DNA from: a virus
Taxonomy: Duplodnaviria > Caudoviricetes
Length of the DNA: 64,000 nt
IMG/VR virus record: IMGVR_UViG_3300021514_000002
Location: 160,001-224,000 of that record
Direction: 5' to 3' (one strand)
Positions 8,679 to 61,551 of this stretch are shown one piece after another; the stretch's first letter is position 1; the number at the start of each line of letters is the position of its first letter. The position numbers were made by a program, and so were the translations under genes. A model generated the notes under the pieces. The model did no database searches and had not been told where the DNA came from. It saw only the letters and a program-made list of their open reading frames with translations.

Positions 8679-9086
8679 ATGAAACGCTTTGAAAAGATTA
8701 AAAAGTCAAGATACCGCAAAAAGTTAAACGAGTCTAATGACTGTGTGGTCATTGCTATCGCTATCGCTGCGCGCATGACATACGAAAAGGCACATGGTAT
8801 ATGTGAATTCCAAGGCCGCAAAAAAGGCAAAGGCATACACACTGAGCACGTCTTAAAGCATCTTAAAGTTATTGGTTTTAAAATTGAAAAGGTTAAAAAC
8901 CTTCGTCAAAAAAATGGATCACGTTATACACCTAAAACGATAGGCGATAGATTAAAACGTGGATATTATATAATACGCAAAAACCGTCATGCTATTGCGG
9001 TAGTCAATGGCGTAGTCGAAGACTGGACGAGTGGCAGACAACACCACATTAAAGACGCCTTTAAAATAACACGTATTAGATCTTGA
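8679..9086 (+). CDS. Phage protein with NDCV...H...D pattern (possible papain/C39-like fold)
   Basis: Cys in NDCVVIA and His in HAIAVVNG...D; cassette promoter 8621. Confidence 0.55.
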   Translation: MKRFEKIKKSRYRKKLNESNDCVVIAIAIAARMTYEKAHGICEFQGRKKGKGIHTEHVLKHLKVIGFKIEKVKNLRQKNGSRYTPKTIGDRLKRGYYIIRKNRHAIAVVNGVVEDWTSGRQHHIKDAFKITRIRS

Positions 9087-16501: not shown

Positions 16502-16762
16502 ATGCCAGAAATTTATGAACATCAGATACCGCATCGCAGAATGCTTAATTTTGCATACGGACGAATATGTGAAATTGATGAACAGGTAAAACAATTACAA
16601 CTGGAAAAAGAATTAATGCAAACAATTCTTGAAAAATTTGAACCATTAGTTTGCCCGGATTGTATGGGCGATGGTCATATTATGAAACCAATTAAAGGTT
16701 GTGAGCTTGATGGTCCAAGATTGCATCATTGTGAAACCTGTGATGGTAAAGGTGTAGTATAA
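16502..16762 (+). CDS. Small protein with DnaJ-type CxxCxGxG zinc finger
   Basis: CPDCMGDG...CETCDGKG. Confidence 0.7.
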   Translation: MPEIYEHQIPHRRMLNFAYGRICEIDEQVKQLQLEKELMQTILEKFEPLVCPDCMGDGHIMKPIKGCELDGPRLHHCETCDGKGVV

Positions 16763-17490
16763 TGTTAAAGCCTAATTTCCATATTGTTATTCCTGCCCGA
16801 TACGGCTCTAGTCGTTTCCCAGGCAAACCCCTGGCCAATATTTGTGGCAAGCCTATGATACAACATGTTCATGAAATAGCCTGTCGTACAAAAGCCAAGT
16901 CTGTGACTATTGCAACTGACAATGTTCAAATATTGGACTTTTGTAAAACTATTAAGGCACAATGTATATTGACAGACACTACTTGCGAATCAGGCACAGA
17001 CAGACTGGCAGAGGTCAGTCGAATACATGGTTGGTGCTCTGATGATATCGTGGTTAATCTACAAGGCGACGAGCCCTTGATGCCTCCAAGCTTAGTAAAT
17101 CAAGTTGCGAGTTTATTAGAATATTTCACAGGCAGTGATTGTAATATAGCCACATTGTATACCCCCATAGAAAACGGTAATAACCCTAATGATGTTAAGG
17201 TTATTACTGACGAATATGGTTATGCAATGTATTTCAGCCGCTGCGCTATCCCACATGGAGCCACTATATTTAAACGCCATATAGGACTGTATGCCTATCG
17301 GGTTGGGTTCTTACAAAATTTTGAATACATGCCCAACTGTGGATTGGAACGTGTCGAACATTTAGAACAATTACGTGCCATGTATCATGGTGCCAAGATA
17401 AGGGTTGAAGAAGCCGTAGAGATTCCTGGACCGGATGTTAATTGTCCAGAAGACTTAGAACACGTAATAAAGGCAATGAAGAATGAATAA
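16762..17490 (+). CDS. kdsB: CMP-Kdo synthetase (3-deoxy-manno-octulosonate cytidylyltransferase)
   Basis: IPARYGSSRFPGKPLA, SGTDRLAE, VNLQGDEP, HIGLYAYR, LEQLRAM, DVNCPEDL. Confidence 0.92.
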   Translation: MLKPNFHIVIPARYGSSRFPGKPLANICGKPMIQHVHEIACRTKAKSVTIATDNVQILDFCKTIKAQCILTDTTCESGTDRLAEVSRIHGWCSDDIVVNLQGDEPLMPPSLVNQVASLLEYFTGSDCNIATLYTPIENGNNPNDVKVITDEYGYAMYFSRCAIPHGATIFKRHIGLYAYRVGFLQNFEYMPNCGLERVEHLEQLRAMYHGAKIRVEEAVEIPGPDVNCPEDLEHVIKAMKNE

Positions 17491-44590: not shown

Positions 44591-45574
44591 ATGAAACGTA
44601 AAACAACCAAGGAATTTATAGATGAATCTATAGCGATTCATGATAATAGATATGACTATTCGTTAGTTAAATATAAGAATAATAAAACTAAAGTAGAAAT
44701 TATTTGCCAGCTACATGGTAAATTTTTACAAGTAGCTAAAAGTCATTTAATGGGTTCTGGTTGTATTAAATGTCACCATACAGAAACCTCGAAAAGGTTA
44801 CAATACAACAATGCCGATTTTATTAAATTAGCAAAAGAAAAACATAATAATAAGTATGATTATTCTACAACGATTTATGTTAATAGCCATTCAAAGGTTA
44901 ATATTGTTTGTCAGGAACATGGAACATTTATGATGTTGCCAAGTAACCATATATACGGACAAGGTTGTCCAAAATGCGGTCAAATGATAACAGGTAAGTA
45001 TACAACCGCACAATTTATACAAAAGGCGAAACTATGTTACAATGGTAAATTTGACTATTCGTTGGTAGAATATAAAAATTCAACAACGCCCGTGATTATA
45101 AAATGTCCAGAACATGGGAAATTTAAACAACGTCCAGATTATCATTTGACAAATACCATATCTTGCCCCACGTGCGTGAACAATATACGTTCCGAAAATG
45201 GTATAGGTGGGTATTCAATGGCTTTATTCGAGGCGAATTCAGACTTAAAAACTAAAGCTGCATTGTTATATGTAGTAAAAATATATGACAACAACGAATC
45301 TTTTATTAAAGTTGGAATAACTATACAATCATTGAGCGCAAGATTTTCAAAATTTAATATCAATGGTTACAAAATAGTTCCAATTTATACATCGGCCTAT
45401 TCGTTATATGATGCTTTTATAAAAGAACAATCTATTATACAACATTTTATTGGAAGTACTTATAAACCAAAAAGGAAATTTAATGGTTGGACGGAATGTT
45501 TTGTATCAAACATAACACAAAATATTATCAATTTTGTAGACCAACAATGTGCAGAAGTTGTCCATTACCCATAG
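44591..45574 (+). CDS. Putative homing endonuclease: three DUF723-like Zn repeats plus GIY-YIG/T5orf172-like domain
   Basis: C..HG.F.....H..G.GC.KC x3; LYVVK...IKVGIT; opposite strand to neighbours; TATAAATA at 44544. Confidence 0.7.
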   Translation: MKRKTTKEFIDESIAIHDNRYDYSLVKYKNNKTKVEIICQLHGKFLQVAKSHLMGSGCIKCHHTETSKRLQYNNADFIKLAKEKHNNKYDYSTTIYVNSHSKVNIVCQEHGTFMMLPSNHIYGQGCPKCGQMITGKYTTAQFIQKAKLCYNGKFDYSLVEYKNSTTPVIIKCPEHGKFKQRPDYHLTNTISCPTCVNNIRSENGIGGYSMALFEANSDLKTKAALLYVVKIYDNNESFIKVGITIQSLSARFSKFNINGYKIVPIYTSAYSLYDAFIKEQSIIQHFIGSTYKPKRKFNGWTECFVSNITQNIINFVDQQCAEVVHYP

Positions 45575-48153: not shown

Positions 48154-50655
48154 TCATGCTAACGCCATCTCCTCGTCTGTTAGTGCATATGTCCAATCTC
48201 TGTACCTGATTAAAACACCATTCATATAAGATGTATTTTTTGTGCCAAGTTCAATACTGGATGTGGAAATATCATTCGGTGTTCCGTTATAGGTGGAACC
48301 ATCCTGAACGCCGTTCAACCACATTTTAAAAACGCCGTTAGTATGTGTTATACCTACTCTTATAGGAACCCCAATAGGCAAAGGGGTTGTTCCCGTTATT
48401 CGAGCGCCTGTGTTATAGAACCATTCTAAATAGAAGTTTATACCATCAGCAGTAGTGTACACCAATGAATCATGGGTGTTATTATAAACATATATACCAC
48501 CAGTGGAGAACGTTGTACCATACAACACAATATCTAAAATCCTTGTGTAATCATAAATAACTTGTAATGTAACATTGTCCTTCTGCAATGAAATTGTAGG
48601 TGAATGTTTTCTAGTTACCGCGACGGTAGTAGTTTCTATTCTGGATGATGGACCAGATGCATACTCTAGTTGATTATAGTCTATTGCTAGTTTATCACCA
48701 GAGGTGCTTATCTTAATTCCAAACTGGGGATCAAGTTGAGTTTGATTCATCCACACTCTTACCCATGGACGATTTAATATATTCAACTGAGCTGTCACAT
48801 CTGTATAAGTAGCCCCACCATCCATCGTTATGGATATTGTTCCTGTACCAACCAGTCGTTTTATATCACAACTATATGCTCTTCTGGCTGAAGAAGCAGT
48901 AAAAGTTTGAAACACCGTAGCATCGGCTGCTGTTGCTAAGATAGATGATGCTGCACTCGCAACATTGTCCATACCTAGTTGATCAAACAACGCGGTCATG
49001 TTGGTCTTAACCCATGCAGCATTCGACATGTCACGTGAGTAAAGCACCTCATTAGTACGGTCATCTTCACAAACAGTACCGCGAAAATTCTTACCCTCTG
49101 TAGATATTGGGAAACTCCCAACTGTGTATGCTTCGGTAGCAACAGGAATACCGTCAAAAGGTCTGTTCAAAAATAATTGCGTGACATTATTGCCAGTTAT
49201 CCAACGTGCTTCGCCGTCACCACTCCACCATACTAGCTTGTCTTTGTGTTCTCCAGGAGTCCATGTTTGTGTGGTGTCTTCCAATATAGACTGAGTTGAC
49301 CCCGCGCCTGTCAGCGTACCTGAAAATTGTACAAGTGTTTCTACATACTCAAAGCGGTCTTTCTGTGTGAATGTACTTGTTGATGTAGAGTGTACTATAG
49401 GCTCTGGGAACCCGCTATTTATAACTGCGTTATAGTTTGTAAAACTATGGTCGTTAGTAGGAATTGCTATTGTACCAACAGAACCAACAGGAACACCACC
49501 TCCACTAGCAGGTGTTTCATTAACCCATTTACTAGTACCACTATCATAAGTAAGTACCTGACCATCTACAATGTCTAACGGTGAACCCGTTGGTGTAAGG
49601 GTAACATCAGTTAAACCATTTAATGAAGTAACACTGCTCGCACCACCAATACTAGTAAATTTTGCAGCTTCTATAAAGACCGCATCTGCGCTGTCGGATA
49701 AATCTATCGCACCACCGCGAATAATTAAATATCCACGGGTTATTCCTGTGGCAAATGCTGGATTGTATAGGTGATTAACATCCGGCAAATCTGCAAGTGC
49801 CTCGGCGAAGCTTCCATAATCCGTTTGCCCATATTCAATGCGATGACCTGCACCAGGACAATGGTTTATAATCTGGACTGTCCATGTGTTTGAACCAACA
49901 GTACCAGGTGCGCCGTCACCATCATCCCATTCATCAGGAACAATGGTATTAGTCTTGTTTGTTAATGTATATCCGCCAGAGCCATCTTGGTAACTATAAA
50001 TCCATTCGAATGCTGTTTCTGCGCCATCTGTTGTAATATCGGGGACTGCTTTATTAATATGAAAATTGTTACCAACGCGATAACTTTCGCCAATGGATTT
50101 ATCTAAGTTTAAATTTCCACCATTTGCACTATATACGTTACCACTAATGTTAAAACTTCCAAGAGCTAGACCAAGATCGGACAACCGCGCAGCTGTATCA
50201 AATGCAGCAATAGGATCACTTCTTATACCAAGAACATTAGTATTATTTGCATGGCCGATAGTACCAAGAATAATATAATCCCTTGTATTGGCGGGTGTGA
50301 AATTTGTTGTTTGTTGTATAAGATTAACTGAAGGCGAGCCGGAAATATCAATGGCAATAAAAGTTTGTGGCTCGGTCGCAATATTTGTAATTGCAACATC
50401 CGTATAAGCTGACCATGATACAAGTTGATATGTTGGATTTTCAGGATCGGTATAATTATTAACTACAATACCAGACCCTGCTGTTACTGAAAATGTTGTT
50501 GTTGTTAATGGAGAACCAGACAATGTACCAAACGAAAGCGCGCCGCCCGTAAACAATCCTGTTGAAATTTTACTTAATTGTATTGGCAATAAGCCATTTG
50601 CATCAGGAAAAACAACTTCACCTGGTTCGATTTGAAAACCTTTAATACGTGCCAT
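48154..50655 (-). CDS. Virion fibre/spike protein with C-terminal LamG-like domain
   Basis: T/G/S-rich; L..LTDV linker; EDDRTNEVLYSRD..NAAW; VGIT.TNG...WLNG...G.K...NG...ALTDEE. Confidence 0.75.
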   Translation of the reverse strand: MARIKGFQIEPGEVVFPDANGLLPIQLSKISTGLFTGGALSFGTLSGSPLTTTTFSVTAGSGIVVNNYTDPENPTYQLVSWSAYTDVAITNIATEPQTFIAIDISGSPSVNLIQQTTNFTPANTRDYIILGTIGHANNTNVLGIRSDPIAAFDTAARLSDLGLALGSFNISGNVYSANGGNLNLDKSIGESYRVGNNFHINKAVPDITTDGAETAFEWIYSYQDGSGGYTLTNKTNTIVPDEWDDGDGAPGTVGSNTWTVQIINHCPGAGHRIEYGQTDYGSFAEALADLPDVNHLYNPAFATGITRGYLIIRGGAIDLSDSADAVFIEAAKFTSIGGASSVTSLNGLTDVTLTPTGSPLDIVDGQVLTYDSGTSKWVNETPASGGGVPVGSVGTIAIPTNDHSFTNYNAVINSGFPEPIVHSTSTSTFTQKDRFEYVETLVQFSGTLTGAGSTQSILEDTTQTWTPGEHKDKLVWWSGDGEARWITGNNVTQLFLNRPFDGIPVATEAYTVGSFPISTEGKNFRGTVCEDDRTNEVLYSRDMSNAAWVKTNMTALFDQLGMDNVASAASSILATAADATVFQTFTASSARRAYSCDIKRLVGTGTISITMDGGATYTDVTAQLNILNRPWVRVWMNQTQLDPQFGIKISTSGDKLAIDYNQLEYASGPSSRIETTTVAVTRKHSPTISLQKDNVTLQVIYDYTRILDIVLYGTTFSTGGIYVYNNTHDSLVYTTADGINFYLEWFYNTGARITGTTPLPIGVPIRVGITHTNGVFKMWLNGVQDGSTYNGTPNDISTSSIELGTKNTSYMNGVLIRYRDWTYALTDEEMALA

Positions 50656-50669
50656 TTTTTATATTCTCC

Positions 50670-52922
50670 TTATACCAATAATATGTTTTCAATTTGATTA
50701 CCACTAGGAATAGTGTAATTAAATGTAACGTAACTAGAAAACTCACCAACTGGTACAATGTTGCCGCTTATATCTGTTTCCGCGTAATCGCCGTCTGTGC
50801 CTGCTATGGCAGCTTCTAATTGTGCAAACCCACCCATAGGCGTAAAGTGCACATCCCCATACGGCGATGGCGCGGGTGGTGTTGGTGACGGTGAGCCACC
50901 AGGTATATATGCACCTAATAAAGGTACATTTAATGTGTAATCTGCAACCCAACCGATTGGAATTGTCGTAACGCCTGGTGAGCCGCCAAAACTTGGACCT
51001 GATTGATATACCGAATAAACACTATCAAAGTTGCCATATGTAGCATCAACGGAGCCGCGAATTGTAAATGTTTTTCCTGCTGGGAAAAGTGCAGTTACAT
51101 CGCCACTTATTATAATTTCATCTGGAATTATTGGCGAGCCAGAACCCATACTTGGTGCGCTTATAAAATTCGCGCTTATAATTACTGTAGGACTAGGATC
51201 GGTCGCGAACAAATATGTTCCATCAGGTGAACCAACACCTGGATCAGTTATGGCAATAGAACTAGTCGAGCCTGCTGAATCTGTTGTAAACTTTTCAAGA
51301 TCATCATCTTCGAGTTCAAATAACACATGTGCTAAGTGCGGACTTCCTGAAGACATAATACTATTAATTGTTGCTATAAGACTGCCGTGTGTAACCACAG
51401 ATGCCCCTGCTGGGATAGTTACGGTTACAGCACCACCTCCATTGATGCTTACGGCAAAATCATACGTCACTGTTGCATCTAGACCTGTATAAGTCGTTGA
51501 AGAAATAAGTCCTACGCTTGTATCGTATCTAACACGCTGTACACCATGGGTATGTGCATATTGTTTTAATCCATTTATCGTAATGGATAATTTGTTATCA
51601 TTAACAACATGTGCTAAAATTTCATACGGCGCAGGAGTTGTAAGATCGGCAACAAGTGTTTCAAGATTACGGATAACAGAAAGTTCCGTTGGTTCCGTTG
51701 ATGTTCCACCACTGCCAACGGCTGCGACATTATCAACATAATTTTTTGTAGCAAGATCATTACTGGCTACTGGTTCGGCAGCTGCCACTTGTCCGCCAAA
51801 ATTAGCACCACCCGAAGATGTTACCGTACCAGTAAACGTAGGTGAGGCTCTATTGGCCTTAATTAAATCAATATTTTCAATGACAGCTTGTACTGACGCG
51901 CCCGCAATATCAAGGATTGGGGAACCAGTATTATCAAACGTTATTTCAGTCGCAGTATGGGCATGTCCTACCCGCGATACACCATCTATTGTAAGTATGC
52001 CTATATTTGGCGAGCCTGGATGTGTTATTGTAAATTGTAACGAAGTTTCAGTTATATTTGGTAAGGGTGAACCGCCAGCTGCTGCAATCCAATCGACTTG
52101 ACTTAATACGCCATCGCCCCCAGCACCAGTAAGAACAAATGATTCAACATAGGCTTTAGAAGCTGCCTCGTCTGGATCGGTTGGAGTAAGTGGTAACCCT
52201 GTAATAGTACCACCACCTACAGTAACTGGTGACGCTGGACTACCAAGTGGTGCAACTATTAAATTGCCACCATTTATAGTTAAATTAGCACTGACATCCA
52301 TTGTATCACCAGTGCGACTGATTTTACCATCAAGTTGGTTTTGAATAGTAATTGAACCAATCGGGGAACCAGTGACAATACCTTTTAACGTATTAACTTC
52401 GTCGGCGGTTAACGTTGGCAAATCCAATGAATCTAAGAATGTATTTTGTGTTGTTGTGAGGTGAATAGTATCAAGAACAGTATGGGCATCAACATATTGT
52501 CTAGGTACTGCTCCAAGCGCACTACTGGGGTTACCATCCAATATCAGTTCACCTGTCATAGCAGATGTGCCTGTGGCTAAAATAACAGCATCCCAAGCAG
52601 TTGCACTATTACGAATAAATAACTCTGGACCAAGAATAGGACTTCCAGTACCAATGTTGTTGTACCATAATTGGCCTTCTATCGCAGAACCAGGTTCAGT
52701 ACCTGCTGCGAAGTTTTCAAGCATGTAGATTAAATCTTGCTCAATTCCCTGACCATAATCTTGCATACCTTTACCATACAATTTTAAGGTTGTAGTTGCA
52801 GCTACTGCATGATCAATAAAAATAGGATCGGATGGACTTGTTGGTCCATTCGTGGTATACGGATAAACGGAAAATTCCGGTTTCGTAGTATCTGAATAAA
52901 AAAACGTATATTTTGTTGCCAT
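50670..52922 (-). CDS. Virion baseplate/tail-fibre protein
   Basis: LYGKG...YGQ......MLENFA...GQLWYN; A.K.YVD fibre repeats; 11 GSP motifs. Confidence 0.75.
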   Translation of the reverse strand: MATKYTFFYSDTTKPEFSVYPYTTNGPTSPSDPIFIDHAVAATTTLKLYGKGMQDYGQGIEQDLIYMLENFAAGTEPGSAIEGQLWYNNIGTGSPILGPELFIRNSATAWDAVILATGTSAMTGELILDGNPSSALGAVPRQYVDAHTVLDTIHLTTTQNTFLDSLDLPTLTADEVNTLKGIVTGSPIGSITIQNQLDGKISRTGDTMDVSANLTINGGNLIVAPLGSPASPVTVGGGTITGLPLTPTDPDEAASKAYVESFVLTGAGGDGVLSQVDWIAAAGGSPLPNITETSLQFTITHPGSPNIGILTIDGVSRVGHAHTATEITFDNTGSPILDIAGASVQAVIENIDLIKANRASPTFTGTVTSSGGANFGGQVAAAEPVASNDLATKNYVDNVAAVGSGGTSTEPTELSVIRNLETLVADLTTPAPYEILAHVVNDNKLSITINGLKQYAHTHGVQRVRYDTSVGLISSTTYTGLDATVTYDFAVSINGGGAVTVTIPAGASVVTHGSLIATINSIMSSGSPHLAHVLFELEDDDLEKFTTDSAGSTSSIAITDPGVGSPDGTYLFATDPSPTVIISANFISAPSMGSGSPIIPDEIIISGDVTALFPAGKTFTIRGSVDATYGNFDSVYSVYQSGPSFGGSPGVTTIPIGWVADYTLNVPLLGAYIPGGSPSPTPPAPSPYGDVHFTPMGGFAQLEAAIAGTDGDYAETDISGNIVPVGEFSSYVTFNYTIPSGNQIENILLV

Positions 52923-53040
52923 GTAATAAATCCCTATAAACCAATTACTTTCCAGTATTTATTACTTTGTAATTTAAACACTCTACTAACCTTTTTGGGG
53001 GTCAGTTGTATTGATTTAGGGGATATTTAGTACATAACTA

Positions 53041-54249
53041 TTATTGTCTGTTTAGTCGCTCCGCAAGCAGCATTACGTCAGAAAGGGTTGGCTCTTCAAT
53101 AAACGGTACGTCGTAACTATCATCAAATTCAAATGGTCGGGACATAACTCCATATAATTCGTTCAGGAATACGGGATTCTGTTCGGCAAGCAACCCATTT
53201 TGCATTTCTTCATACGTGTCTTTATGCACGAATGGGAGTTGACAATATCCGTTGACGGGTGCTAAAAATTCATCACCATTTAATAGTTTATTTGCAAGAT
53301 GGCATTTTGAACAAAATTGTCTAGCTTCACAAGTACCACATCGTATATCTTTTTGTGGTACTGGAATATCCAAACTATCCTCAAGTTCTTTTAAGCTACT
53401 AACTTCAAGAATGTTACCAAACCCATACTTATCTTTCTCTTCTGGGTGTTCTTGTGCATACGCATAATACCTATGACATGACCACAAACCACCATCGGGC
53501 GATAAGGCAAGCAAGTATTTTCCTGCACCACATCCGTAATGATCTTGGTTGGTTGAACGGAATGGTGATAAATGTGTAATAAATACAGACGCACCATCTC
53601 TATAAGATTTTACGACCATATCTTTTATGCGCCTAAATTCTATGCGGTATTTTTCTGCATCTTCCATCGTCCATTTATCAACTTCAATAACAGGAACAAT
53701 ACCAATAGATCTAATACCAAGATTGATCATTTTTTGAATACCATCTGCAACACCATCTATTGTATCTGGGGTTACGGTAGTTTCAATATGTAATGTTCGT
53801 TCATTACCCGCTTCGCTTTCGCAACGCATACAACCAGTACCTTGGTATTCTTCTACATAACGCTTAATATTATCTTCGACATTTGTTAAATTGATGCCAC
53901 CCATGGGGTGAACGAAATCTTGTCTAGTACCATCATAACTTATTTGTACCATAATATTTCTTTTAGTTTCTCTAAGTTTTTCCAATAGTGGTTCTTTCAT
54001 GAAACTACCATTTGTGAAAATCTTAATATATGACTTATTGCCTTTTTCGTCTAAGCGATTAAGGATATCAATAATCATATCACTGAATAGAAGTGGTTCA
54101 CCACCAAAAATACTCAATACATCGTTATCAGTCAATAGTTCGATAATTTTATCAACTACTCGTGGTTCTGCTTCTTCATTCTTAAATGGTACATAACAAT
54201 ATGTACATCTAAAATTACAGCGTCGGGTAAGATATAACTTAAGCTCCAT
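53041..54249 (-). CDS. Radical SAM/SPASM enzyme (rSAM-4)
   Basis: CNFRCTYC; FGGEP; Cx12Gx4C...Cx2Cx5Cx2C...C. Confidence 0.92.
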   Translation of the reverse strand: MELKLYLTRRCNFRCTYCYVPFKNEEAEPRVVDKIIELLTDNDVLSIFGGEPLLFSDMIIDILNRLDEKGNKSYIKIFTNGSFMKEPLLEKLRETKRNIMVQISYDGTRQDFVHPMGGINLTNVEDNIKRYVEEYQGTGCMRCESEAGNERTLHIETTVTPDTIDGVADGIQKMINLGIRSIGIVPVIEVDKWTMEDAEKYRIEFRRIKDMVVKSYRDGASVFITHLSPFRSTNQDHYGCGAGKYLLALSPDGGLWSCHRYYAYAQEHPEEKDKYGFGNILEVSSLKELEDSLDIPVPQKDIRCGTCEARQFCSKCHLANKLLNGDEFLAPVNGYCQLPFVHKDTYEEMQNGLLAEQNPVFLNELYGVMSRPFEFDDSYDVPFIEEPTLSDVMLLAERLNRQ

Positions 54250-55441
54250 AATATTTCCTTAGTGCGTAATAAACGCTTACTATTGTTTTTAGAACTTGTG
54301 TGGTACAATAACCGGGTTGTGTGGCTTCAACTGGACACGATACCCCGCAATATTTTAATACGTTACATGTTTTACACTTATCAGCAACAGAAGATGGGGA
54401 ATCCTCTAAACCCACCTGTGTACAACGTTGAAATGTTGACGCTTTTGATGTTTCTGGTGTTACTACAGGAACGTCACCAACATACAATCTACATCCTCTT
54501 GCTAAGAAGAAATTAGAATCGTTGGCTTTTAATCTCTCGTAAATCTGTTCACCGCGTTCAATTGCACTTAGTGGCATTTCGGTACGCTTGCCATCAATTA
54601 TTGCATTTACGTCAATAAGCAACAATGCCAATAGTGTATCAAACTCATTATCGGTTGGTAAGAACTTATCTTCTGAAACTACTTCAAATGTTAATGACAG
54701 TTCACGATTTAAGTCTGGCTCAAATTCCTTACGAATTTCTGTATAATCATAACTACCATTACACAGTGTCGCGCGAATACCAAAGTCATCGCCTGTTAAT
54801 TTGGCTAATTCTTTCGCTCTGGGTATAATGTTTTCTTGGAATTTTCCTGGTCGGTATTTGTTAGTAGGGTCTAAACTAACTTGAAGAGCTATCCTATTTG
54901 GATATTTGTCTAAAACATCAAGTAAGTTGTTATATTCTTTATCACTCACAAATAGGCCAGTTGAGATCGATACCACATATTCTGTCTGTTCTAGAATATC
55001 TTTTATTAGTTCAAAATTTAATAATGGCTCACCGCCTAAAATCGTTATATCTTTTAAAGTATCTACACTATCAATAGCTTCTAATGATTTCATTAGATAT
55101 TCAAATGTTACAACTTCACCGTTTATCATCCATGGCGTAGCGTAACAATAAGTACACTTTCCGCGACAAACGTTTGTAGAATTAACATAAATTGATTCCA
55201 CACGGCTTGGTGTAAATTGACCCAATTCCACTTCTAACTCGGCAAGAAATTCTGTTCTTGCCATGTCTGCGTCTGTTGTGTCGCTTACAATATTAACGTC
55301 ACCATGATACAACAATTTAACTGGTTGCTTTAGTGGATAGTCTGGTAGTTCTTGAAACATAGCAAGTTCTAACGAATAGGCAATATTTTTATCACCTATC
55401 TTAAACATCACAAGTTCAGGAATTTCATTTCTGCGGATCAT
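54239..55441 (-). CDS. Radical SAM/SPASM enzyme (rSAM-3) with ~85-aa N-terminal extension
   Basis: CRGKCTYC; LGGEP; Cx2Cx5Cx3C...C. Confidence 0.9.
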   Translation of the reverse strand: MIRRNEIPELVMFKIGDKNIAYSLELAMFQELPDYPLKQPVKLLYHGDVNIVSDTTDADMARTEFLAELEVELGQFTPSRVESIYVNSTNVCRGKCTYCYATPWMINGEVVTFEYLMKSLEAIDSVDTLKDITILGGEPLLNFELIKDILEQTEYVVSISTGLFVSDKEYNNLLDVLDKYPNRIALQVSLDPTNKYRPGKFQENIIPRAKELAKLTGDDFGIRATLCNGSYDYTEIRKEFEPDLNRELSLTFEVVSEDKFLPTDNEFDTLLALLLIDVNAIIDGKRTEMPLSAIERGEQIYERLKANDSNFFLARGCRLYVGDVPVVTPETSKASTFQRCTQVGLEDSPSSVADKCKTCNVLKYCGVSCPVEATQPGYCTTQVLKTIVSVYYALRKYYGA

Positions 55442-56648
55442 TTATTACTCCTTTTCGTGTGATGAAAAACGTGGCATATAAACTAAATACATAATCAATA
55501 ACTTTAACGTAACAATATAGTTCTTTAAATTTCTTAATCCCACATGAGCCACCACATAGCTTCAAGTAATTACATTCTTTACAAACGCCCGACGTTTCTA
55601 CAACTTCCTCGACCATGCTTTCATTATATAATGATTCGTCTAAAATTGGACGATTTGGACTATCACAGTAAGATAAACTGCCGTCTGGTAATAGCGTAAA
55701 GTAATTAAAACCACAGCCACATGTGCGCATATTTTTAACAATACCTTCATCATGGAACATAGGGAAAACATTCATCATAAATGAAGTTCTTTCGGTTAGG
55801 TCGCCAGCTAAAAACGCATCGAGTTCTTTATCATACAATCCACGTACTTGATCTAATGTATTGTGATTAGATAAGCGGATATCTTCAAATCCATATCCCA
55901 CCCCATCAAAGTTCACCTGAGCGCCGTCAGGAAGTTCACTACGTAAGGCATGGATGTCGTACGCTTCACGGTTTATTGTGGTTTTAACCCTAATGCGCGA
56001 ACCAAGAAATTTATATAATTTATGGAACAATCTTATATTTCGTTCGCGCTTACCTTGTTCGCTACTTGCCTTATATCGTAGCGAATTGGGAGGATCGATG
56101 CTTAATGAAATTTCAACATTATCACGGAACATTAAAAAGGTTAATAGGTCATCTATCTCGCCATCTGAACAAGGAAATGATGTACAAATTGTCCAGTCTG
56201 TATTGGGAAATAAATCAATGATATGTTTTACAATTCCAATATTCTCAAGTGGGTCACCACCAAGGAACATTCCACCCTTAATGTCTTCTGGTACAATATT
56301 ATATCGTTTAATGAATTCAGCTACGGTTTTTTCAGTTAAGACAGTCTTATCATTTTTTTCAGAAGCGGCGTAACAATATGAGCATTTAAGAGAACAATAC
56401 CAAGATGGTATTACAGTAAGGCTAGTTATTTTGCGTTCTGCAAATTCACAACTGCGAGATTGTTGAATATTATTATATATTTCATTTTGTTTGTTTTTAT
56501 TATCTTTTATGTCGTTGCATACATCCAACACTATTGGTTGATCGTATTTCCTTGGTGATACTTTCCAAGTAAGATTGATTAGATCAACCTCAACGGTAGT
56601 GTCGTCGTGGGACAGGAATGCCGTGTCCCATTTCATTAAATCTTTCAT
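55425..56648 (-). CDS. Radical SAM/SPASM enzyme (rSAM-2) with ~80-aa N-terminal extension
   Basis: CSLKCSYC; LGGDP; Cx12Gx4C...Cx2Cx5Cx3C...C. Confidence 0.92.
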   Translation of the reverse strand: MKDLMKWDTAFLSHDDTTVEVDLINLTWKVSPRKYDQPIVLDVCNDIKDNKNKQNEIYNNIQQSRSCEFAERKITSLTVIPSWYCSLKCSYCYAASEKNDKTVLTEKTVAEFIKRYNIVPEDIKGGMFLGGDPLENIGIVKHIIDLFPNTDWTICTSFPCSDGEIDDLLTFLMFRDNVEISLSIDPPNSLRYKASSEQGKRERNIRLFHKLYKFLGSRIRVKTTINREAYDIHALRSELPDGAQVNFDGVGYGFEDIRLSNHNTLDQVRGLYDKELDAFLAGDLTERTSFMMNVFPMFHDEGIVKNMRTCGCGFNYFTLLPDGSLSYCDSPNRPILDESLYNESMVEEVVETSGVCKECNYLKLCGGSCGIKKFKELYCYVKVIDYVFSLYATFFITRKGVINDPQK

Positions 56649-56660
56649 TCTAACCTTCTT

Positions 56661-58232
56661 TTATAAGGATGATATGTCTATATTATTATCTATAAGTGGA
56701 AGCGCTTCGCCAATATTTGCGTAAACTTCTGGATATGTATATGTTTCTTTATTTTTTATTACCCCGTATACATGTTTTGCTCTACCCATCATGATTACTC
56801 TGAATGGGAAGTTATGAAACGTATATACTGCAACCAAACTCTCAGGATCGATTTTTAAATAACTTCCTTCAACCCCGTAACTTTCTTCAAATTGATGGAT
56901 TTCTAATACGCGAACATCTTCGCCATTTTGGTCTTTGACATATTGATCGTCGTTACAAAAACCATCAGTGGCCATAATATTTCGTACAGAAATTCCAATC
57001 TTTGAAAACATACGAACAATAGACATGTAAGTAAATTCCATTTGTGGAATTAATGCATCTATTGCAACGAGTTGCTCACCTTCATTTACTTTACTAGTAA
57101 GAATACGCTTAAAATTAATCATGGCATGATATAATCCCATGATGCCATTAACTCCTTCTTCTAAATTCCCACCAAACTTGTCAAGTATATTAACACCCAT
57201 TATAGAATATGTCAAGCGTTCTAATATGTCATAATTTGCTGGCATATTAAATTTATTAAGAATAGAACAAACATGGGCAGTACCTGCCGAAACTGTCATT
57301 TCATTATTAACATCTGTAATTATTTGGTCATGTTTACTTAACACATCAAGATCTTTTCTAAAGGTGCAAGTAGATATTTTACCAAATTGTTTAATTACAA
57401 CATTACCATTTAAGCAAGATACAATAGGAAATAGTAAGCTTGTCGGGGAATACATTTTTTTCATTTCTGGAACAACGTCTAATAGATGTTTAATATGCTC
57501 AACTTCATATCTTTCATCATTTTTCCAGAACCCTTCTATTTCATTTAATGGTTGTATTGCAACGTTAATACCTTGTCGCTTAACATCATCCATTAATGTG
57601 CGAATTTCTTCAGGTGTTTGTTTATCTGACATCATTAGGTTGGTCTGTACGCGCGTGGGATCGATATCCGACACCGCTTGAAGTGTTCGGCGTACATCAG
57701 CATATTGAATAAATCTTGGATTAACCATACGAGGGTCAGACGAAATAGTAATATATGAACGAGGATCTGAAAAATATTTAGTAATAGTATTGGTATCCAT
57801 TCCGTTGGAAAACAATTCTACTTTAATGTGTTTATCAGGATCAATTTCATCAAGAAACCCATATAACTTTTTTAGAGCTGGTTCATTTTTGGCTTGTAAC
57901 AGTTCACCACCAGATGTTTCAAGAACAGAAGGTTTAAATTCTGCAATACGATCCATGGTGTCTTTAAGTTTAGGGTAGTTGTTTCGCACTTCTGGGAAAT
58001 TTTCAACAAAAAAACGTTCCAAACAATAATCACATGTAGTATTGCATTGTTTGTAACTTGTAATTTTTGTTTCCATTCGGGAAATATCTACTTTCGGAAG
58101 GGCGGCGATTTCGGATTTATTAAACCCATCGCCAGATCCATGAACACCCAAAGTATTTACCCAATGTTGGTCTGCTTCTGAATTACAAGGGTCGTTGAAG
58201 AATAGCTTGGTGCCATTTTTAAATGTTATCAT
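56661..58232 (-). CDS. Radical SAM enzyme (rSAM-1) with twitch-like motif and extra C-terminal domain
   Basis: CNTTCDYC; SGGE; SNG; Cx10Gx4C. Confidence 0.85.
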   Translation of the reverse strand: MITFKNGTKLFFNDPCNSEADQHWVNTLGVHGSGDGFNKSEIAALPKVDISRMETKITSYKQCNTTCDYCLERFFVENFPEVRNNYPKLKDTMDRIAEFKPSVLETSGGELLQAKNEPALKKLYGFLDEIDPDKHIKVELFSNGMDTNTITKYFSDPRSYITISSDPRMVNPRFIQYADVRRTLQAVSDIDPTRVQTNLMMSDKQTPEEIRTLMDDVKRQGINVAIQPLNEIEGFWKNDERYEVEHIKHLLDVVPEMKKMYSPTSLLFPIVSCLNGNVVIKQFGKISTCTFRKDLDVLSKHDQIITDVNNEMTVSAGTAHVCSILNKFNMPANYDILERLTYSIMGVNILDKFGGNLEEGVNGIMGLYHAMINFKRILTSKVNEGEQLVAIDALIPQMEFTYMSIVRMFSKIGISVRNIMATDGFCNDDQYVKDQNGEDVRVLEIHQFEESYGVEGSYLKIDPESLVAVYTFHNFPFRVIMMGRAKHVYGVIKNKETYTYPEVYANIGEALPLIDNNIDISSL

Positions 58233-58262
58233 ATTATCGTCCTATGTTAAGGGTATAAATTA

Positions 58263-58577
58263 TTATATGTTCTTAATTATTACGGAACGCGGAGCACCAT
58301 CAATTAATAGTTTTAATTGTGCAAACGGTGTTTCTTTTTGAATTAAAAGATTATATACAATATCTTTTGTATTTTCGCCCGTATCTAAAGTACGATTATC
58401 CGTGAGTTTAATATTATTATCGGATATATCAACATCGATACTCATATCAAGATCAGCCGATATAATTAACTCTAACCTATTAAAACCTTCGGTATCTAAA
58501 GCGCTATTAGCAATCTCTACTACGACCACATCAGATGATGTGTTTACTACATCTACTAAAAATTTATTATTGTCCAT
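58263..58577 (-). CDS. Accessory protein of the rSAM locus
   Basis: ORF between fibre gene and rSAM genes; SD AAGGA. Confidence 0.7.
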   Translation of the reverse strand: MDNNKFLVDVVNTSSDVVVVEIANSALDTEGFNRLELIISADLDMSIDVDISDNNIKLTDNRTLDTGENTKDIVYNLLIQKETPFAQLKLLIDGAPRSVIIKNI

Positions 58578-58590
58578 GATATATCCTTTA

Positions 58591-59247
58591 TTAAATTACA
58601 ACTAATGTGTAGGTATATGTAGTTGGTACGCTAAATTCCATAAAATTATTTTTTGGAACTGAAGCTTTACCAATGGATATAACGTACATTCCAGATGTTG
58701 TTAAATTAAATTGCTTTGTTGTAGGATCATAATAATCCACTGTATTGCCCGTATTCATACGGAAACATTTAATAGATTTTAATAACTCTGGGGTACGAAT
58801 ATCAGAGAATGGACTAAGATCGAAACCGTTCAATGAATATGTTCCAATAGAACATATGTTACCATACGACGTTTTCATTCTAAGTTTTGTTGTTGTTTCC
58901 GTGATATCAATCTTCGGCGTAAGCATTTCTATCAACATAGAATATGTTCCGGCCATCATTCGTGCTTCACCAGTATCACTAAACTGTGTAGCAGGTGACA
59001 AAATAACTACCTTTTCTGAATATCCATTAAATTCTTCAATACTGCCAATTAATTCATCAGTTGGTAATATTACATCTTTAACTTCAATCGCTAACGTATT
59101 TACATTGAAAACGATATATTTTCCAACCGTACCATCACCTATCATGGTATCATCAAAACTGATAGTATCAATTGTGGCAATCGCATTTAATGAAATCTTG
59201 GAAAAAGATAACGATTCAACAACGTCTGTTAGTACAAATATTCTCAT
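58591..59247 (-). CDS. Accessory protein of the rSAM locus (beta-rich)
   Basis: Start re-set to ATG 59247, 1 nt after the fibre stop codon. Confidence 0.7.
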   Translation of the reverse strand: MRIFVLTDVVESLSFSKISLNAIATIDTISFDDTMIGDGTVGKYIVFNVNTLAIEVKDVILPTDELIGSIEEFNGYSEKVVILSPATQFSDTGEARMMAGTYSMLIEMLTPKIDITETTTKLRMKTSYGNICSIGTYSLNGFDLSPFSDIRTPELLKSIKCFRMNTGNTVDYYDPTTKQFNLTTSGMYVISIGKASVPKNNFMEFSVPTTYTYTLVVI

Positions 59248-59248
59248 G

Positions 59249-60904
59249 TTATCCCCATTTAGCACATTTACTATGTGCGCAGTTACAAGTGCAAGTGCAA
59301 GTGCAAGTGCATGTACACCCACAAGTATTATTAGAACTTGGTATATATTTTGTAGTAGCACCAAATACTACTTCTAGTGAATTACCTACGAGGTTACTAG
59401 CAGAATCATAATAAGCTGCCCCATTATATGTAACTGTAGCGCCACCCGTAACTACAAAATTAAGTTTATTTGCACCATCATCATATGTTACATCAATTCC
59501 AGATTCGAAGTTTCCACTTATCATTGCACCGACAATATCCTGCAAACTTTCGGTTTTTTGTGTTTCAAAATTTGCGGCGGTTAATACTTCCGCACCACTA
59601 ATGGTAATATTAGTACCATCTAATGTGGTTGGTCCAATCCACGAAATCGTTGCACCTATCGTACCTGATATTGCATGATATATCTCAATACCCGTAGTAT
59701 GTATTCGCAGCATCACAGCTGGCTCGCCGGATTTTGCGTATGTGTGTACAGCACCTGTCCATGTAGCATTCCATAAATGTTCTACCCTACCTGAGCCATC
59801 GTCTTGGACAATTGAGTATTTGCCATTGGTTGATGTTTGTTCTAACAAGGTCGCAACAGCAGAAAATGCTAAGGTGCCTAACATAGTATCGCCAGTATCG
59901 TTTACATATCGTCCATCTGCATAATCTCGGTTTATTCCATCTGTGCCAACAACAGGAGTTCCAACATTATTAATTTGATTCGTTGCCATATCCAAGTCGC
60001 CTGCCATGGCATCGCCTGTTACATTAACAAATCGGTTGTCAGCGTAACCAAGATTTACAGCATCGTCTGCCGAATCAGGATCAGCAAGATTTTCAATTTT
60101 ATGCGAGTCCATGTTGAGAGCGCCTTGCATAGCTTTACTACCGTCACGCGGTAAGTAATTTGCGGAAACGCGTGTCCAATCTGGGGAACCACCTGTAAAA
60201 ATTCGTAAATTTCTTTCATATTCATCACTGCTAATGGCGTATGTTGAAGTTTCCCACCATAGATCGCTTATCGATGGTGCTGTTGGTGCTGTATCAGAAA
60301 AAGTAATACCACCAACACGTTTCCATATTCCTGTGAGTGGTGAACCTAAAAATTCATAAACGTAGATTTGTCCCCGTGTTTGGTTATACCACATCTGTCC
60401 TTCTATTGGGGTAGTTGCGCTAAATTGGCCTGCTTTATTTGGAACGCCAAGTTCGCCCGCACTAGCTGAAATTGCACCTGATGTAAGGTTCGGTGCAGTA
60501 AGAGGACTACCCGTAGATGCTAATGTAATTGTTGTTTCTGTAGAACCATTATATACTGCTGACTGAACGACATACGTTCCATCGTCTGTAGGTGACCCAG
60601 TAGAACCCCAAATATTAAAACTCCTTGTTGGGGGGAATGCTCGTTCAACGTCACCCACAATAGTAAAAGTTGTCCCTGTTGGAACACTAGTTATAATATG
60701 AATGTCTTCTTCCGATGAAAAATTTTCCAACATATGGATGAAGTTTTCGAGGATAGTTTCGCCCCATAGCGAATGCCCCATGCCAATAAGGTCTATGTCT
60801 GTTTGTCTGTTTCCACCGCGTGGACCAGCAACAGCATTGGGTAAAACGTTGAGAGTACTTTTTGTTGGATCAACAAAATTTATAGTGTAATTCTTAGCGG
60901 CCAT
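59249..60904 (-). CDS. Tail-fibre-like virion protein with C-terminal (Cys-X)7-Cys tail
   Basis: LIG.G...WGE..LENF..MLENF; GQMWYN; three G..M.G.L.M...I.N..P..DA.N..YAD repeats; ends NTCGCTCTCTCTCTCNCAHSKCAKWG. Confidence 0.85.
   Translation of the reverse strand: MAAKNYTINFVDPTKSTLNVLPNAVAGPRGGNRQTDIDLIGMGHSLWGETILENFIHMLENFSSEEDIHIITSVPTGTTFTIVGDVERAFPPTRSFNIWGSTGSPTDDGTYVVQSAVYNGSTETTITLASTGSPLTAPNLTSGAISASAGELGVPNKAGQFSATTPIEGQMWYNQTRGQIYVYEFLGSPLTGIWKRVGGITFSDTAPTAPSISDLWWETSTYAISSDEYERNLRIFTGGSPDWTRVSANYLPRDGSKAMQGALNMDSHKIENLADPDSADDAVNLGYADNRFVNVTGDAMAGDLDMATNQINNVGTPVVGTDGINRDYADGRYVNDTGDTMLGTLAFSAVATLLEQTSTNGKYSIVQDDGSGRVEHLWNATWTGAVHTYAKSGEPAVMLRIHTTGIEIYHAISGTIGATISWIGPTTLDGTNITISGAEVLTAANFETQKTESLQDIVGAMISGNFESGIDVTYDDGANKLNFVVTGGATVTYNGAAYYDSASNLVGNSLEVVFGATTKYIPSSNNTCGCTCTCTCTCTCNCAHSKCAKWG
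59279..59323 (-). repeat. In-frame hexamer repeat (TGCACT x4) encoding alternating Cys
   Basis: AAGTGC x4 at 59287-59310 on the plus strand. Confidence 0.95.
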
Positions 60905-60915
60905 GTTTATTCCTC

Positions 60916-61551
60916 TTATGTCCTTATGATGTATATTAAGTTATCGCCAGGTGACGCAATATTTGGCACATCAAATGTAGTTACAGACAGCGGACTTCCT
61001 AAACTAAAAGTATCACCAATTTCAATATAAAGTGCAGCAAATCGTGCTTTGTTTACAGATTGTCCAGAACATTCTAGTTCATTTGCCGACATTGTATTTC
61101 TTGCATCAATCCGTATGGTACCCGGTGAAATATTAACAGATACCCAATGGGTACCATTAAAAGTAAAGTGGTCTTTTGATGTCGTGTCGTACCAATGTTG
61201 TCCTATGATTGGTGTAGTTATTCCATTACCAATCCCAAGGTCGTTTTCGTCTTTTGGCATTACTGGATGAATAGTTTCATCATAAAGCGTCGTAGGGGAA
61301 CCTACAATAAAAGTGTCGCCTGTTACTTTTCGTGGGCAGGAAAAATTTTCCAACATACGGTATAAATTTTGATCTACGCCTTCGCCCCATTTTAGTGAAC
61401 CAAATCCAAATAAGCGCAGATCTGTCTGTCGGGCTAATCCAGCCGGACCATTTAACTCACCTGGTCCAATAACAAACGAATTGGCTTCCTTTTCAGATAA
61501 AATAGCTGCGTCATTGAAGGCTGTTTTCTTTATTACGAACGTTTCTGACAT
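60916..61551 (-). CDS. Virion protein with shared ENF-type N-domain and tail-collar-like C-domain
   Basis: LFGFG...WGE...NL..MLENFS; GQHWYD; ECSGQ.V....FAALY..IG.T...TTF..P. Confidence 0.75.
   Translation of the reverse strand: MSETFVIKKTAFNDAAILSEKEANSFVIGPGELNGPAGLARQTDLRLFGFGSLKWGEGVDQNLYRMLENFSCPRKVTGDTFIVGSPTTLYDETIHPVMPKDENDLGIGNGITTPIIGQHWYDTTSKDHFTFNGTHWVSVNISPGTIRIDARNTMSANELECSGQSVNKARFAALYIEIGDTFSLGSPLSVTTFDVPNIASPGDNLIYIIRT

Follow-up and report, generated by a model that had tools for sequence, protein, structure and literature searches.

Why do the tail proteins of a single phage carry the same three residues, Gly-Ser-Pro (GSP), over and over again? The question is raised by the window analysed here, a stretch of 64,000 nucleotides that comprises bases 160001-224000 of an IMG/VR record (363,531 bp, 36% guanine plus cytosine, GC) from an uncultured, T4-like jumbo phage. 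The fibre and radical S-adenosylmethionine (SAM) genes of this window form a single co-directional block on the minus strand, with a tail-collar protein first and a fibre of 833 amino acids (aa) last, and four products of the block contain GSP. The favoured answer, to which we assign a probability of roughly 0.45, is that GSP is a sequon for Ser O-glycosylation on exposed loops of outer tail proteins, read by a Maf-like cassette. The comparisons described below suggest that the GSP excess tracks this portable Maf-like/GT8-like cassette, and not the radical-SAM enzymes encoded next to the fibres. The four proteins are:

60916-61551, minus strand: tail-collar-domain protein of 211 aa with a Pfam Collar match; 2 GSP (residues 84 and 185), that at residue 185 in the variable collar loop.
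59249-60904, minus strand: fibre of 551 aa; 4 GSP (residues 103, 132, 187 and 239) and, besides, a C-terminal Cys-X tail.
50670-52922, minus strand: tail-fibre-like protein of 750 aa; 11 GSP (residues 93, 185, 227, 284, 303, 333, 526, 564, 595, 647 and 676) and no Cys.
48154-50655, minus strand: tail fibre of 833 aa with a Laminin_G_3-like C-terminal domain; 3 GSP (residues 47, 106 and 357).

A preliminary description of this locus had counted 3, 11, 4 and 2 GSP in the 833-, 750-, 551- and 211-aa proteins, 20 in all, and these counts are exact. Its estimate of well under one per protein by chance also holds: composition predicts 0.28, 0.53, 0.18 and 0.08, respectively, or 1.07 for the four proteins together, and the observed number is thus about 19 times the expectation. 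Shuffling each protein 5000 times gave p ≤ 0.003 in every case (p = 0.003 for the 833-aa fibre). The proteins encoded between the fibres were described as free of the motif, and none was found in the four radical-SAM proteins or in the product of a 104-aa open reading frame (ORF). The whole-proteome tripeptide count proposed in the same description was carried out on 535 ORFs from a simple ORF caller, and GSP was found to be the most enriched tripeptide of the genome (85 against 14.8 expected, 5.7-fold). Of the 85 copies, 72 are concentrated in 13 proteins, among which only tail-fibre-like proteins and the tail sheath could be named. The other 13 copies are scattered across ~520 proteins, near the expected background rate. 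Gly-Thr-Pro (GTP) was not enriched (21 against 16 expected), and Gly-Ala-Pro (GAP) and Ala-Ser-Pro (ASP) were likewise far behind GSP. At the 20 sites in the window, Ser is encoded by AGT 5 times and by TCN 15 times; because both Ser codon families are in use, the signal and the selection on it lie at the protein level and not in a DNA word. Leu or Ile is the next residue at 10 of these sites, in agreement with the frequent Leu/Ile described earlier.

Two further observations were made in the course of the tripeptide count. The second most enriched tripeptide, GCP, was considered as a Cys analogue of GSP and rejected, having been traced to H..G.GCPxC zinc-knuckle repeats in unrelated proteins; proteins with one to three such repeats are encoded at 44591-45574 of the window (plus strand) and by eight other genes of the genome. 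The tail sheath, encoded outside the window (genome 318091-319923, plus strand), has four GSP, three of them inside 16 residues (GSP-V-GSP-IVYVD-GSP), and, judged from its sequence, this cluster seems to have been inserted into the outer region of the protein.

Is GSP then a common feature of fibres of this kind? In eight close-relative loci, GSP was observed at 12.9 times the expected frequency, in comparison with 0.80 for 92 randomly chosen, unrelated viral loci. In T4-like phages at a greater distance, 78 fibre loci that share an N-terminal GQxWY domain were found to contain 88 GSP against 104.6 expected (ratio 0.84, with a maximum of 2.96 for any locus). The preliminary description would have been contradicted by GSP being equally common in homologous fibres elsewhere, and no excess was seen in these distant T4-like fibres. 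The whole-genome checks described below were confined to IMG/VR records, most of the records compared being fragments; a DNA-level search of GenBank phages with the fibre/radical-SAM region gave no match, and the 228-aa neighbour protein, used as a query for close relatives, retrieved no more than three IMG/VR loci. For the 750-aa protein, 51 full-length homologues were collected from metagenomes. They contain 3-16 GSP each and 401 in total, 19-fold above composition, distributed over ~45 alignment columns. In 12 recurrent columns, a homologue has either GSP or an unrelated tripeptide, with few ASP or GTP. Some sites are nearly fixed (for example, 42 of 44 homologues have GSP at residue 93, and 43 of 52 at residue 284), and others have been gained and lost between lineages. 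The earlier idea of a selected surface tag is thus well supported by an exact motif, its all-or-none occurrence at aligned sites, its turnover in loops and its confinement to one clade; we regard GSP as a genuine motif that is under selection and specific to this clade.

The nearly fixed sites would also be compatible with a signal for protease processing or for docking of an assembly factor or chaperone, as the preliminary description had suggested as an alternative. However, up to 16 sites occur per protein, scattered through folded domains and many of them lineage-specific; the 11 sites of the 750-aa protein alone are dispersed and poorly conserved in position, and the fibre would be destroyed if every GSP were cut. 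Processing or docking is therefore a very improbable function of the motif.

The sites had also been described as lying in loops. For the 750-aa protein, the one of the four that was modelled, all 11 sites were assigned as coil by DSSP in an AlphaFold model with a predicted local distance difference test (pLDDT) score of 74 overall and >90 across most of the C-terminal half. Within this confident half, four of the five GSP sites fall in blocks where pLDDT dips. All 11 GSP are inside gap-prone stretches of the alignment: columns that are less than half occupied hold 23% of GSP residues and 6-7% of other residues, an enrichment of 3.5-fold in a comparison that includes the other Gly, Ser and Pro. 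Weak matches of the predicted fold were obtained to the D2-D3 domains of FliD and to outer domains of myophage baseplate and sheath proteins. The claim that GSP interrupts otherwise conserved motifs is partly right. In the GQxWY hairpin, the loop is lengthened around GSP relative to ~40 distant homologues. In the collar protein, the loop that takes up GSP, between IG.TYG and F.LPDL, is one that varies naturally, and GSP is absent from it in all 30 distinct relatives compared.

These placements raise the possibility that GSP is a purely structural micro-motif that forms turns, building or stabilising exposed loops with no enzyme to read it. Such a role would account for the fact that every modelled site is a coil or hairpin turn and for the location of sites in gap-prone stretches, Gly, Ser and Pro being loop formers. 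Yet the same folds occur in the 78 related fibre loci with no excess, the nearly equivalent turns GTP, GAP and ASP are not favoured, and the excess is limited to few proteins, the identified ones being outer parts of the tail. We consider a purely structural role rather unlikely.

What, then, could read the motif? A candidate cassette lies outside the window, at 44-51 kb of the genome. It encodes a Maf-like PF01973 protein and a weaker second copy of it, together with four methyltransferases, a protein of GT8 type and a single radical-SAM/SPASM protein. The features relevant here, two of them within the window, are:

Genome 49977-50750: Maf-like protein of 257 aa; PF01973, 37.4 bits against a cut-off of 34.6.
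16762-17490 of the window, plus strand: KdsB, the synthetase of cytidine monophosphate (CMP)-activated 3-deoxy-D-manno-oct-2-ulosonic acid (Kdo), above the NCBIfam kdsB cut-off; a possible supplier of the donor sugar for GSP sites.
8679-9086 of the window, plus strand: 135-aa ORF of no known family; a lead by co-occurrence only.

The 257-aa protein scores above the Pfam gathering threshold for PF01973 (MptE-like/DUF115); the second copy (214 aa) scores 22.6 bits, under the same cut-off. The model of the Maf-like protein is confident (pLDDT 94), and its best match in the PDB is the Maf glycosyltransferase 5mu5 (E 1.1e-5, query template modelling score 0.52), so that a Maf-like fold is predicted. 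The archaeal MptE kinase (8sd5) was a close second, followed by the CMP-sugar enzymes CstII, ST8Sia and ST6GalNAc, and a sequence-level search of the PDB gave no match. The full Maf architecture of ~600 aa with flanking domains is not present, the 267 homologues of the 257-aa protein being 150-270 aa long. A route to a CMP-ulosonic acid donor is encoded by the phage: KdsB, the presence of which had been pointed out in the preliminary description, is real (221-252 bits, the score of 221 being that against the NCBIfam kdsB model with its cut-off of 155), and KdsA is found at ~58 kb of the genome (437 bits, above cut-off). The Maf-like enzyme may use the resulting CMP-Kdo. In a relative of 301 kb, a 16-GSP fibre and a Maf-like island with KdsA were found on one scaffold, and the Maf-like gene was absent from the five largest GSP-negative T4-like records (30-70% complete).

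The content of the island was observed to vary between relatives. In the 301-kb relative (L441:9224-14518), the neighbours of the Maf-like gene are a sulfotransferase gene (PF00685), two genes of the Methyltransf_21 family, one radical-SAM/SPASM gene and another MptE-like gene; KdsA is encoded ~6 kb upstream.

The same association was found in a second, independent lineage, which provides the stronger test. Four near-complete phages of ~65 kb (GC 50-57%) contain the Maf-like gene and show a genome-wide GSP excess of 2.8- to 4.4-fold (Poisson p 6e-4 to 4e-7), which is concentrated in tail-module proteins. Seventeen further structural-module loci of their relatives gave ~74 GSP when pooled, against 15 expected (~5-fold), and the 12 loci with an expectation of at least 0.9 ranged from 2.7- to 11-fold. 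By contrast, sister proviruses of these phages, five of which are 84-92% complete, have no Maf-like gene, and their GSP frequency is 0.7- to 0.8-fold that expected. Nine genes were found by BLAST to be shared between the jumbo phage and the ~65-kb group, namely seven cassette genes, one fibre gene and the ORF at 8679-9086 of the window. Each of the four GSP-positive ~65-kb phages has a homologue of this ORF, which in at least two of them adjoins the GT8-like gene; three GSP-negative genomes have none. That the excess recurs in an unrelated lineage which, beyond the one fibre and this ORF, shares only the sugar cassette is a further argument against GSP being a mere turn. Since the excess tracks a set of sugar-transferase genes in two unrelated groups, GSP is probably a sugar-attachment signal that has not been described before. 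Ser O-glycosylation, which the preliminary description had offered as an example, holds as the best-supported chemistry on comparative evidence, while its lead, KdsB, is bettered by the Maf-like/GT8-like cassette present in these two phage groups.

Other Maf-positive loci were less informative or differ in their motif. In the 10-kb flanks of 79 Maf-like genes, GSP was 1.7-fold enriched, a figure of low information because tail modules rarely lie inside the flanks. A G/D-S-P loop is kept in a capsid-like protein encoded beside the Maf-like gene of small phages; as each of the 80 relatives compared was Maf-positive, a negative control was lacking and no association is claimed. In the Maf-positive ~65-kb phage G047 (L405-L408, ~29-50 kb), SPE ranks first among the tripeptides with 24 copies (7.4-fold), and Ser-Pro as a whole is enriched 2-fold, mainly in structural proteins. 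Some lineages may thus have a wider motif, x-S-P.

Several points weigh against glycosylation by the Maf-like enzyme. The association rests on two independent lineage contrasts only, and because more than one gene of the cassette varies together with GSP, the contrasts do not point to a single reader enzyme. In G046 and G048, both of them complete and Maf-positive, GSP is at only 0.5- and 1.0-fold, a result that would also suit a structural turn; the Maf-like gene is thus not sufficient, or its specificity differs by lineage. (VTP and PVP were tried as substitute motifs in these two genomes and rejected, being scattered over all kinds of protein and not sequon-like.) No KdsA/KdsB homologues were found in the ~65-kb group, which makes the donor sugar uncertain. 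PF01973 includes a pterin kinase (MptE) besides glycosyltransferases. The placement of GSP in loops is by itself weak evidence, as Gly, Ser and Pro are loop-prone in general. Finally, known Maf enzymes are ~600 aa long, act on flagellin, accept Thr besides Ser and have no known sequon (PMC11339370).

GSP may instead have another reader or undergo another chemistry, the candidates being the GT8-like protein, the sulfotransferase-like 193-aa protein, the 332-aa radical-SAM/SPASM protein of the island, a proline hydroxylase or a host enzyme. The Maf-like gene is matched in its co-occurrence with GSP by the genes for the GT8-like protein, for the 193- and 266-aa proteins and for a methyltransferase, a sulfotransferase adjoins the Maf-like gene in the 301-kb relative, and a strict preference for Ser over Thr is unusual among Maf enzymes. 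Nevertheless, the 332-aa radical-SAM protein is absent from two GSP-positive phages (G045 and G047), and the difference in GC content between the two GSP-positive lineages (36% versus 50-57%) argues against one shared host enzyme. No proline hydroxylase was found among the shared genes, although no search aimed at proline hydroxylases was made. That one of these enzymes reads GSP in place of the Maf-like protein is, in our assessment, a minority possibility.

How would Ser O-glycosylation at GSP work? The excess of the motif, its exactness, its placement in loops, its restriction to a clade and its company with the cassette are observed; the Ser modification itself, the enzyme responsible for it and the sugar added are inferred. 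Late in infection, the 257-aa Maf-like transferase would place an acidic ulosonic sugar on the Ser hydroxyl of G-S-P turns at the surface of the fibre, baseplate and sheath. The sugar could plausibly be Kdo, taken from CMP-Kdo made by the phage KdsA and KdsB, and the GT8-like enzyme, the methyltransferases or the sulfotransferase-like cassette protein might extend or decorate it. The parts of the virion that recognise the host would thereby acquire a coat of sugar, which may shield them from proteases, aggregation or recognition, or tune adsorption.

The closest known counterparts of such a system are the Maf (PF01973) flagellin O-glycosyltransferases, such as Magnetospirillum 5mu5 and Clostridium botulinum Maf, which the phage protein resembles in its Pfam domain and in its best fold match. 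Maf enzymes are cytoplasmic and transfer CMP-activated ulosonic acids, among which CMP-Kdo can be used, onto exposed Ser/Thr of a folded structural protein, and the Maf of Aeromonas caviae favours sites flanked by Leu or Ile (PMC11339370). Both the use of CMP-Kdo and the Leu/Ile preference fit the case of GSP. The phage enzyme differs in being short and devoid of flanking domains, in having tail proteins and not flagellin as its presumed target, and in a strict, Ser-only G-S-P site. Short linear motifs also set the site in other systems, such as PglB (D/E-x-N-x-S/T) and PglL (WPAAASAP), and polypeptide N-acetylgalactosamine (ppGalNAc) transferases favour nearby Pro (PMC11339370), comparable to the Pro beside the acceptor Ser in GSP. 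These enzymes are, however, periplasmic oligosaccharyltransferases or, in the ppGalNAc case, eukaryotic Golgi enzymes.

To our knowledge, glycosylation of the phage particle has been documented only for a few mycobacteriophages. According to the account of Freeman et al. (2023; PMC10527164) given in PMC12619734, mycobacteriophage enzymes put O-glycans on their own virion proteins as a surface shield. The likeness is a phage-encoded O-glycosylation of the phage's own virion, which is proposed here as well. The glycans in that account are attached to the C-termini of capsid and tail-tube subunits, whereas the sites proposed here are internal loops of distal tail proteins, with a Maf-like candidate enzyme. 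The jumbo phage genome gave no match to PF00535 (GT2), and its GSP sites are in internal loops and not in C-terminal tails, unlike those of the mycobacteriophage type. Relative to the literature, the GSP system would be a variant of virion and flagellin-type O-glycosylation. A bolder formulation, in which we place somewhat less confidence, is that G-S-P(-Leu/Ile) is the first strict sequon of the Maf family, that in unrelated phage lineages the sheath, baseplate and fibres of the tail receive an acidic Kdo-type sugar from a small virion glyco-cassette (Maf-like, GT8-like, methyltransferase and sulfotransferase-like genes) that moves horizontally, and that GSP loops evolve in each lineage after the cassette is gained.

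What of the radical-SAM enzymes, encoded among the fibre genes themselves? The features between and at the end of the fibre genes are:

59252-59323, minus strand: C-terminal Cys-X repeat of the 551-aa fibre, in which eight Cys at alternating positions precede His-Ser-Lys-Cys; outside the GSP system.
58591-59247, minus strand: 218-aa ORF; outside the GSP system.
58263-58577, minus strand: 104-aa ORF; outside the GSP system.
53041-58232, minus strand: four radical-SAM proteins (523, 407, 400 and 402 aa); outside the GSP system.

A CX3CX2C motif is common to all four radical-SAM proteins, and those of 407, 400 and 402 aa also contain SPASM-type C-terminal Cys clusters. Their position next to the fibres suggested, and the preliminary description had implied, that they modify GSP, for example by conversion of Ser to formylglycine, epimerisation or cross-linking. 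Their matches to radical-SAM/SPASM families that modify peptides, PapB and HxsB among them, score far under the cut-offs; the 407-aa protein weakly matches the anaerobic sulfatase maturase family, and two homologues of the 402-aa protein are labelled as sulfatase maturation enzymes by a metagenome source. Against this proposal, enzyme and motif were found to dissociate in both directions. Three syntenic relatives (L001-L003) have 16, 9 and 16 GSP in the 750-aa homologue and no radical-SAM gene within the 10-kb flanks, which were the part searched, and relatives with radical-SAM genes have 10, 11 and 3 GSP. Conversely, the full radical-SAM cassette is present at L369 and L370, where GSP is not clearly in excess (3 observed for 1.1 expected and 1 for 0.9, respectively). 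GSP and the radical-SAM genes thus occur independently of each other. Moreover, the 750-aa protein contains no Cys and so lacks the donor for thioether chemistry, and in 4 of 4 loci the radical-SAM cassette lies behind a Cys-X-tailed fibre. A role of these enzymes in modifying GSP is scarcely credible. The acceptor motif of sulfatase maturation is C/S-x-P/A-x-R; GSP was rejected as a motif for formylglycine formation by an anaerobic sulfatase-maturing enzyme, as Pro directly follows Ser and no enrichment of Arg was found at +3/+4 (83 sites).

The company that the radical-SAM genes do keep is that of the Cys-X tail. The loci L368, L369 and L370 keep a seven-gene cassette (L368:3311-11119, L369:3738-11167 and L370:2861-11149) in the order Cys-X-tailed fibre, ~210-aa ORF, ~100-aa ORF and four radical-SAM enzymes, three of them SPASM-type. 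The fibres in these more distant loci are 517, 509 and 814 aa long and have differing bodies with the same Cys-X tail (CGCTCTC...NC-x-H-S/G-K-C), which is present in all four loci that include the upstream gene; the tail of the 551-aa fibre has no second copy in its genome. As the radical-SAM genes accompany this tail and dissociate from GSP, the Cys tail is their probable substrate, on which the enzymes most likely act, probably cross-linking the fibre tip. Over its entire length, the 402-aa protein could be aligned with the model of PapB, a ranthipeptide maturase (E 2e-36, below cut-off), and tblastn with it gave only matches of 20-28% identity over most of the protein, plus one of 37% over 21%. 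Ranthipeptide/SCIFF systems (PapB/PapA and CteB/CteA) are therefore the nearest likeness, with a PapB-like enzyme and a Cys-Thr repeat substrate directly upstream. They differ in that the phage substrate would be the C-terminus of a 500- to 800-aa fibre and not a leader-core peptide, and in that four paralogous enzymes are present. A literature search on radical SAM/SPASM together with tail fibres found nothing relevant, and a scan of viral contigs for alternating-Cys coding returned nearly only simple-sequence repeats in non-coding frames. At the DNA level, the Cys-Thr repeat (59270-59300 of the window, minus strand) is a run of about four TGCACT hexamers; relatives have 7 to 10 alternating Cys, and this variable repeat number suggests in-frame slippage.

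What would the GSP system mean for phages? The jumbo phage would have two modification systems side by side that can now be told apart, radical-SAM enzymes with a Cys-repeat fibre tail and, separately, GSP. If glycosylation at GSP holds true, the motif could serve as a simple tag with which recombinant proteins are O-glycosylated at chosen sites in Escherichia coli, a bacterium that makes CMP-Kdo itself. For the phages themselves, a three-residue sequon in the loops of host-recognition proteins and a compact enzyme that may read it would show sugar-coated tails to be widespread among environmental phages, with consequences for adsorption, for resistance to proteases and for the way in which defence or immune systems recognise the phage.

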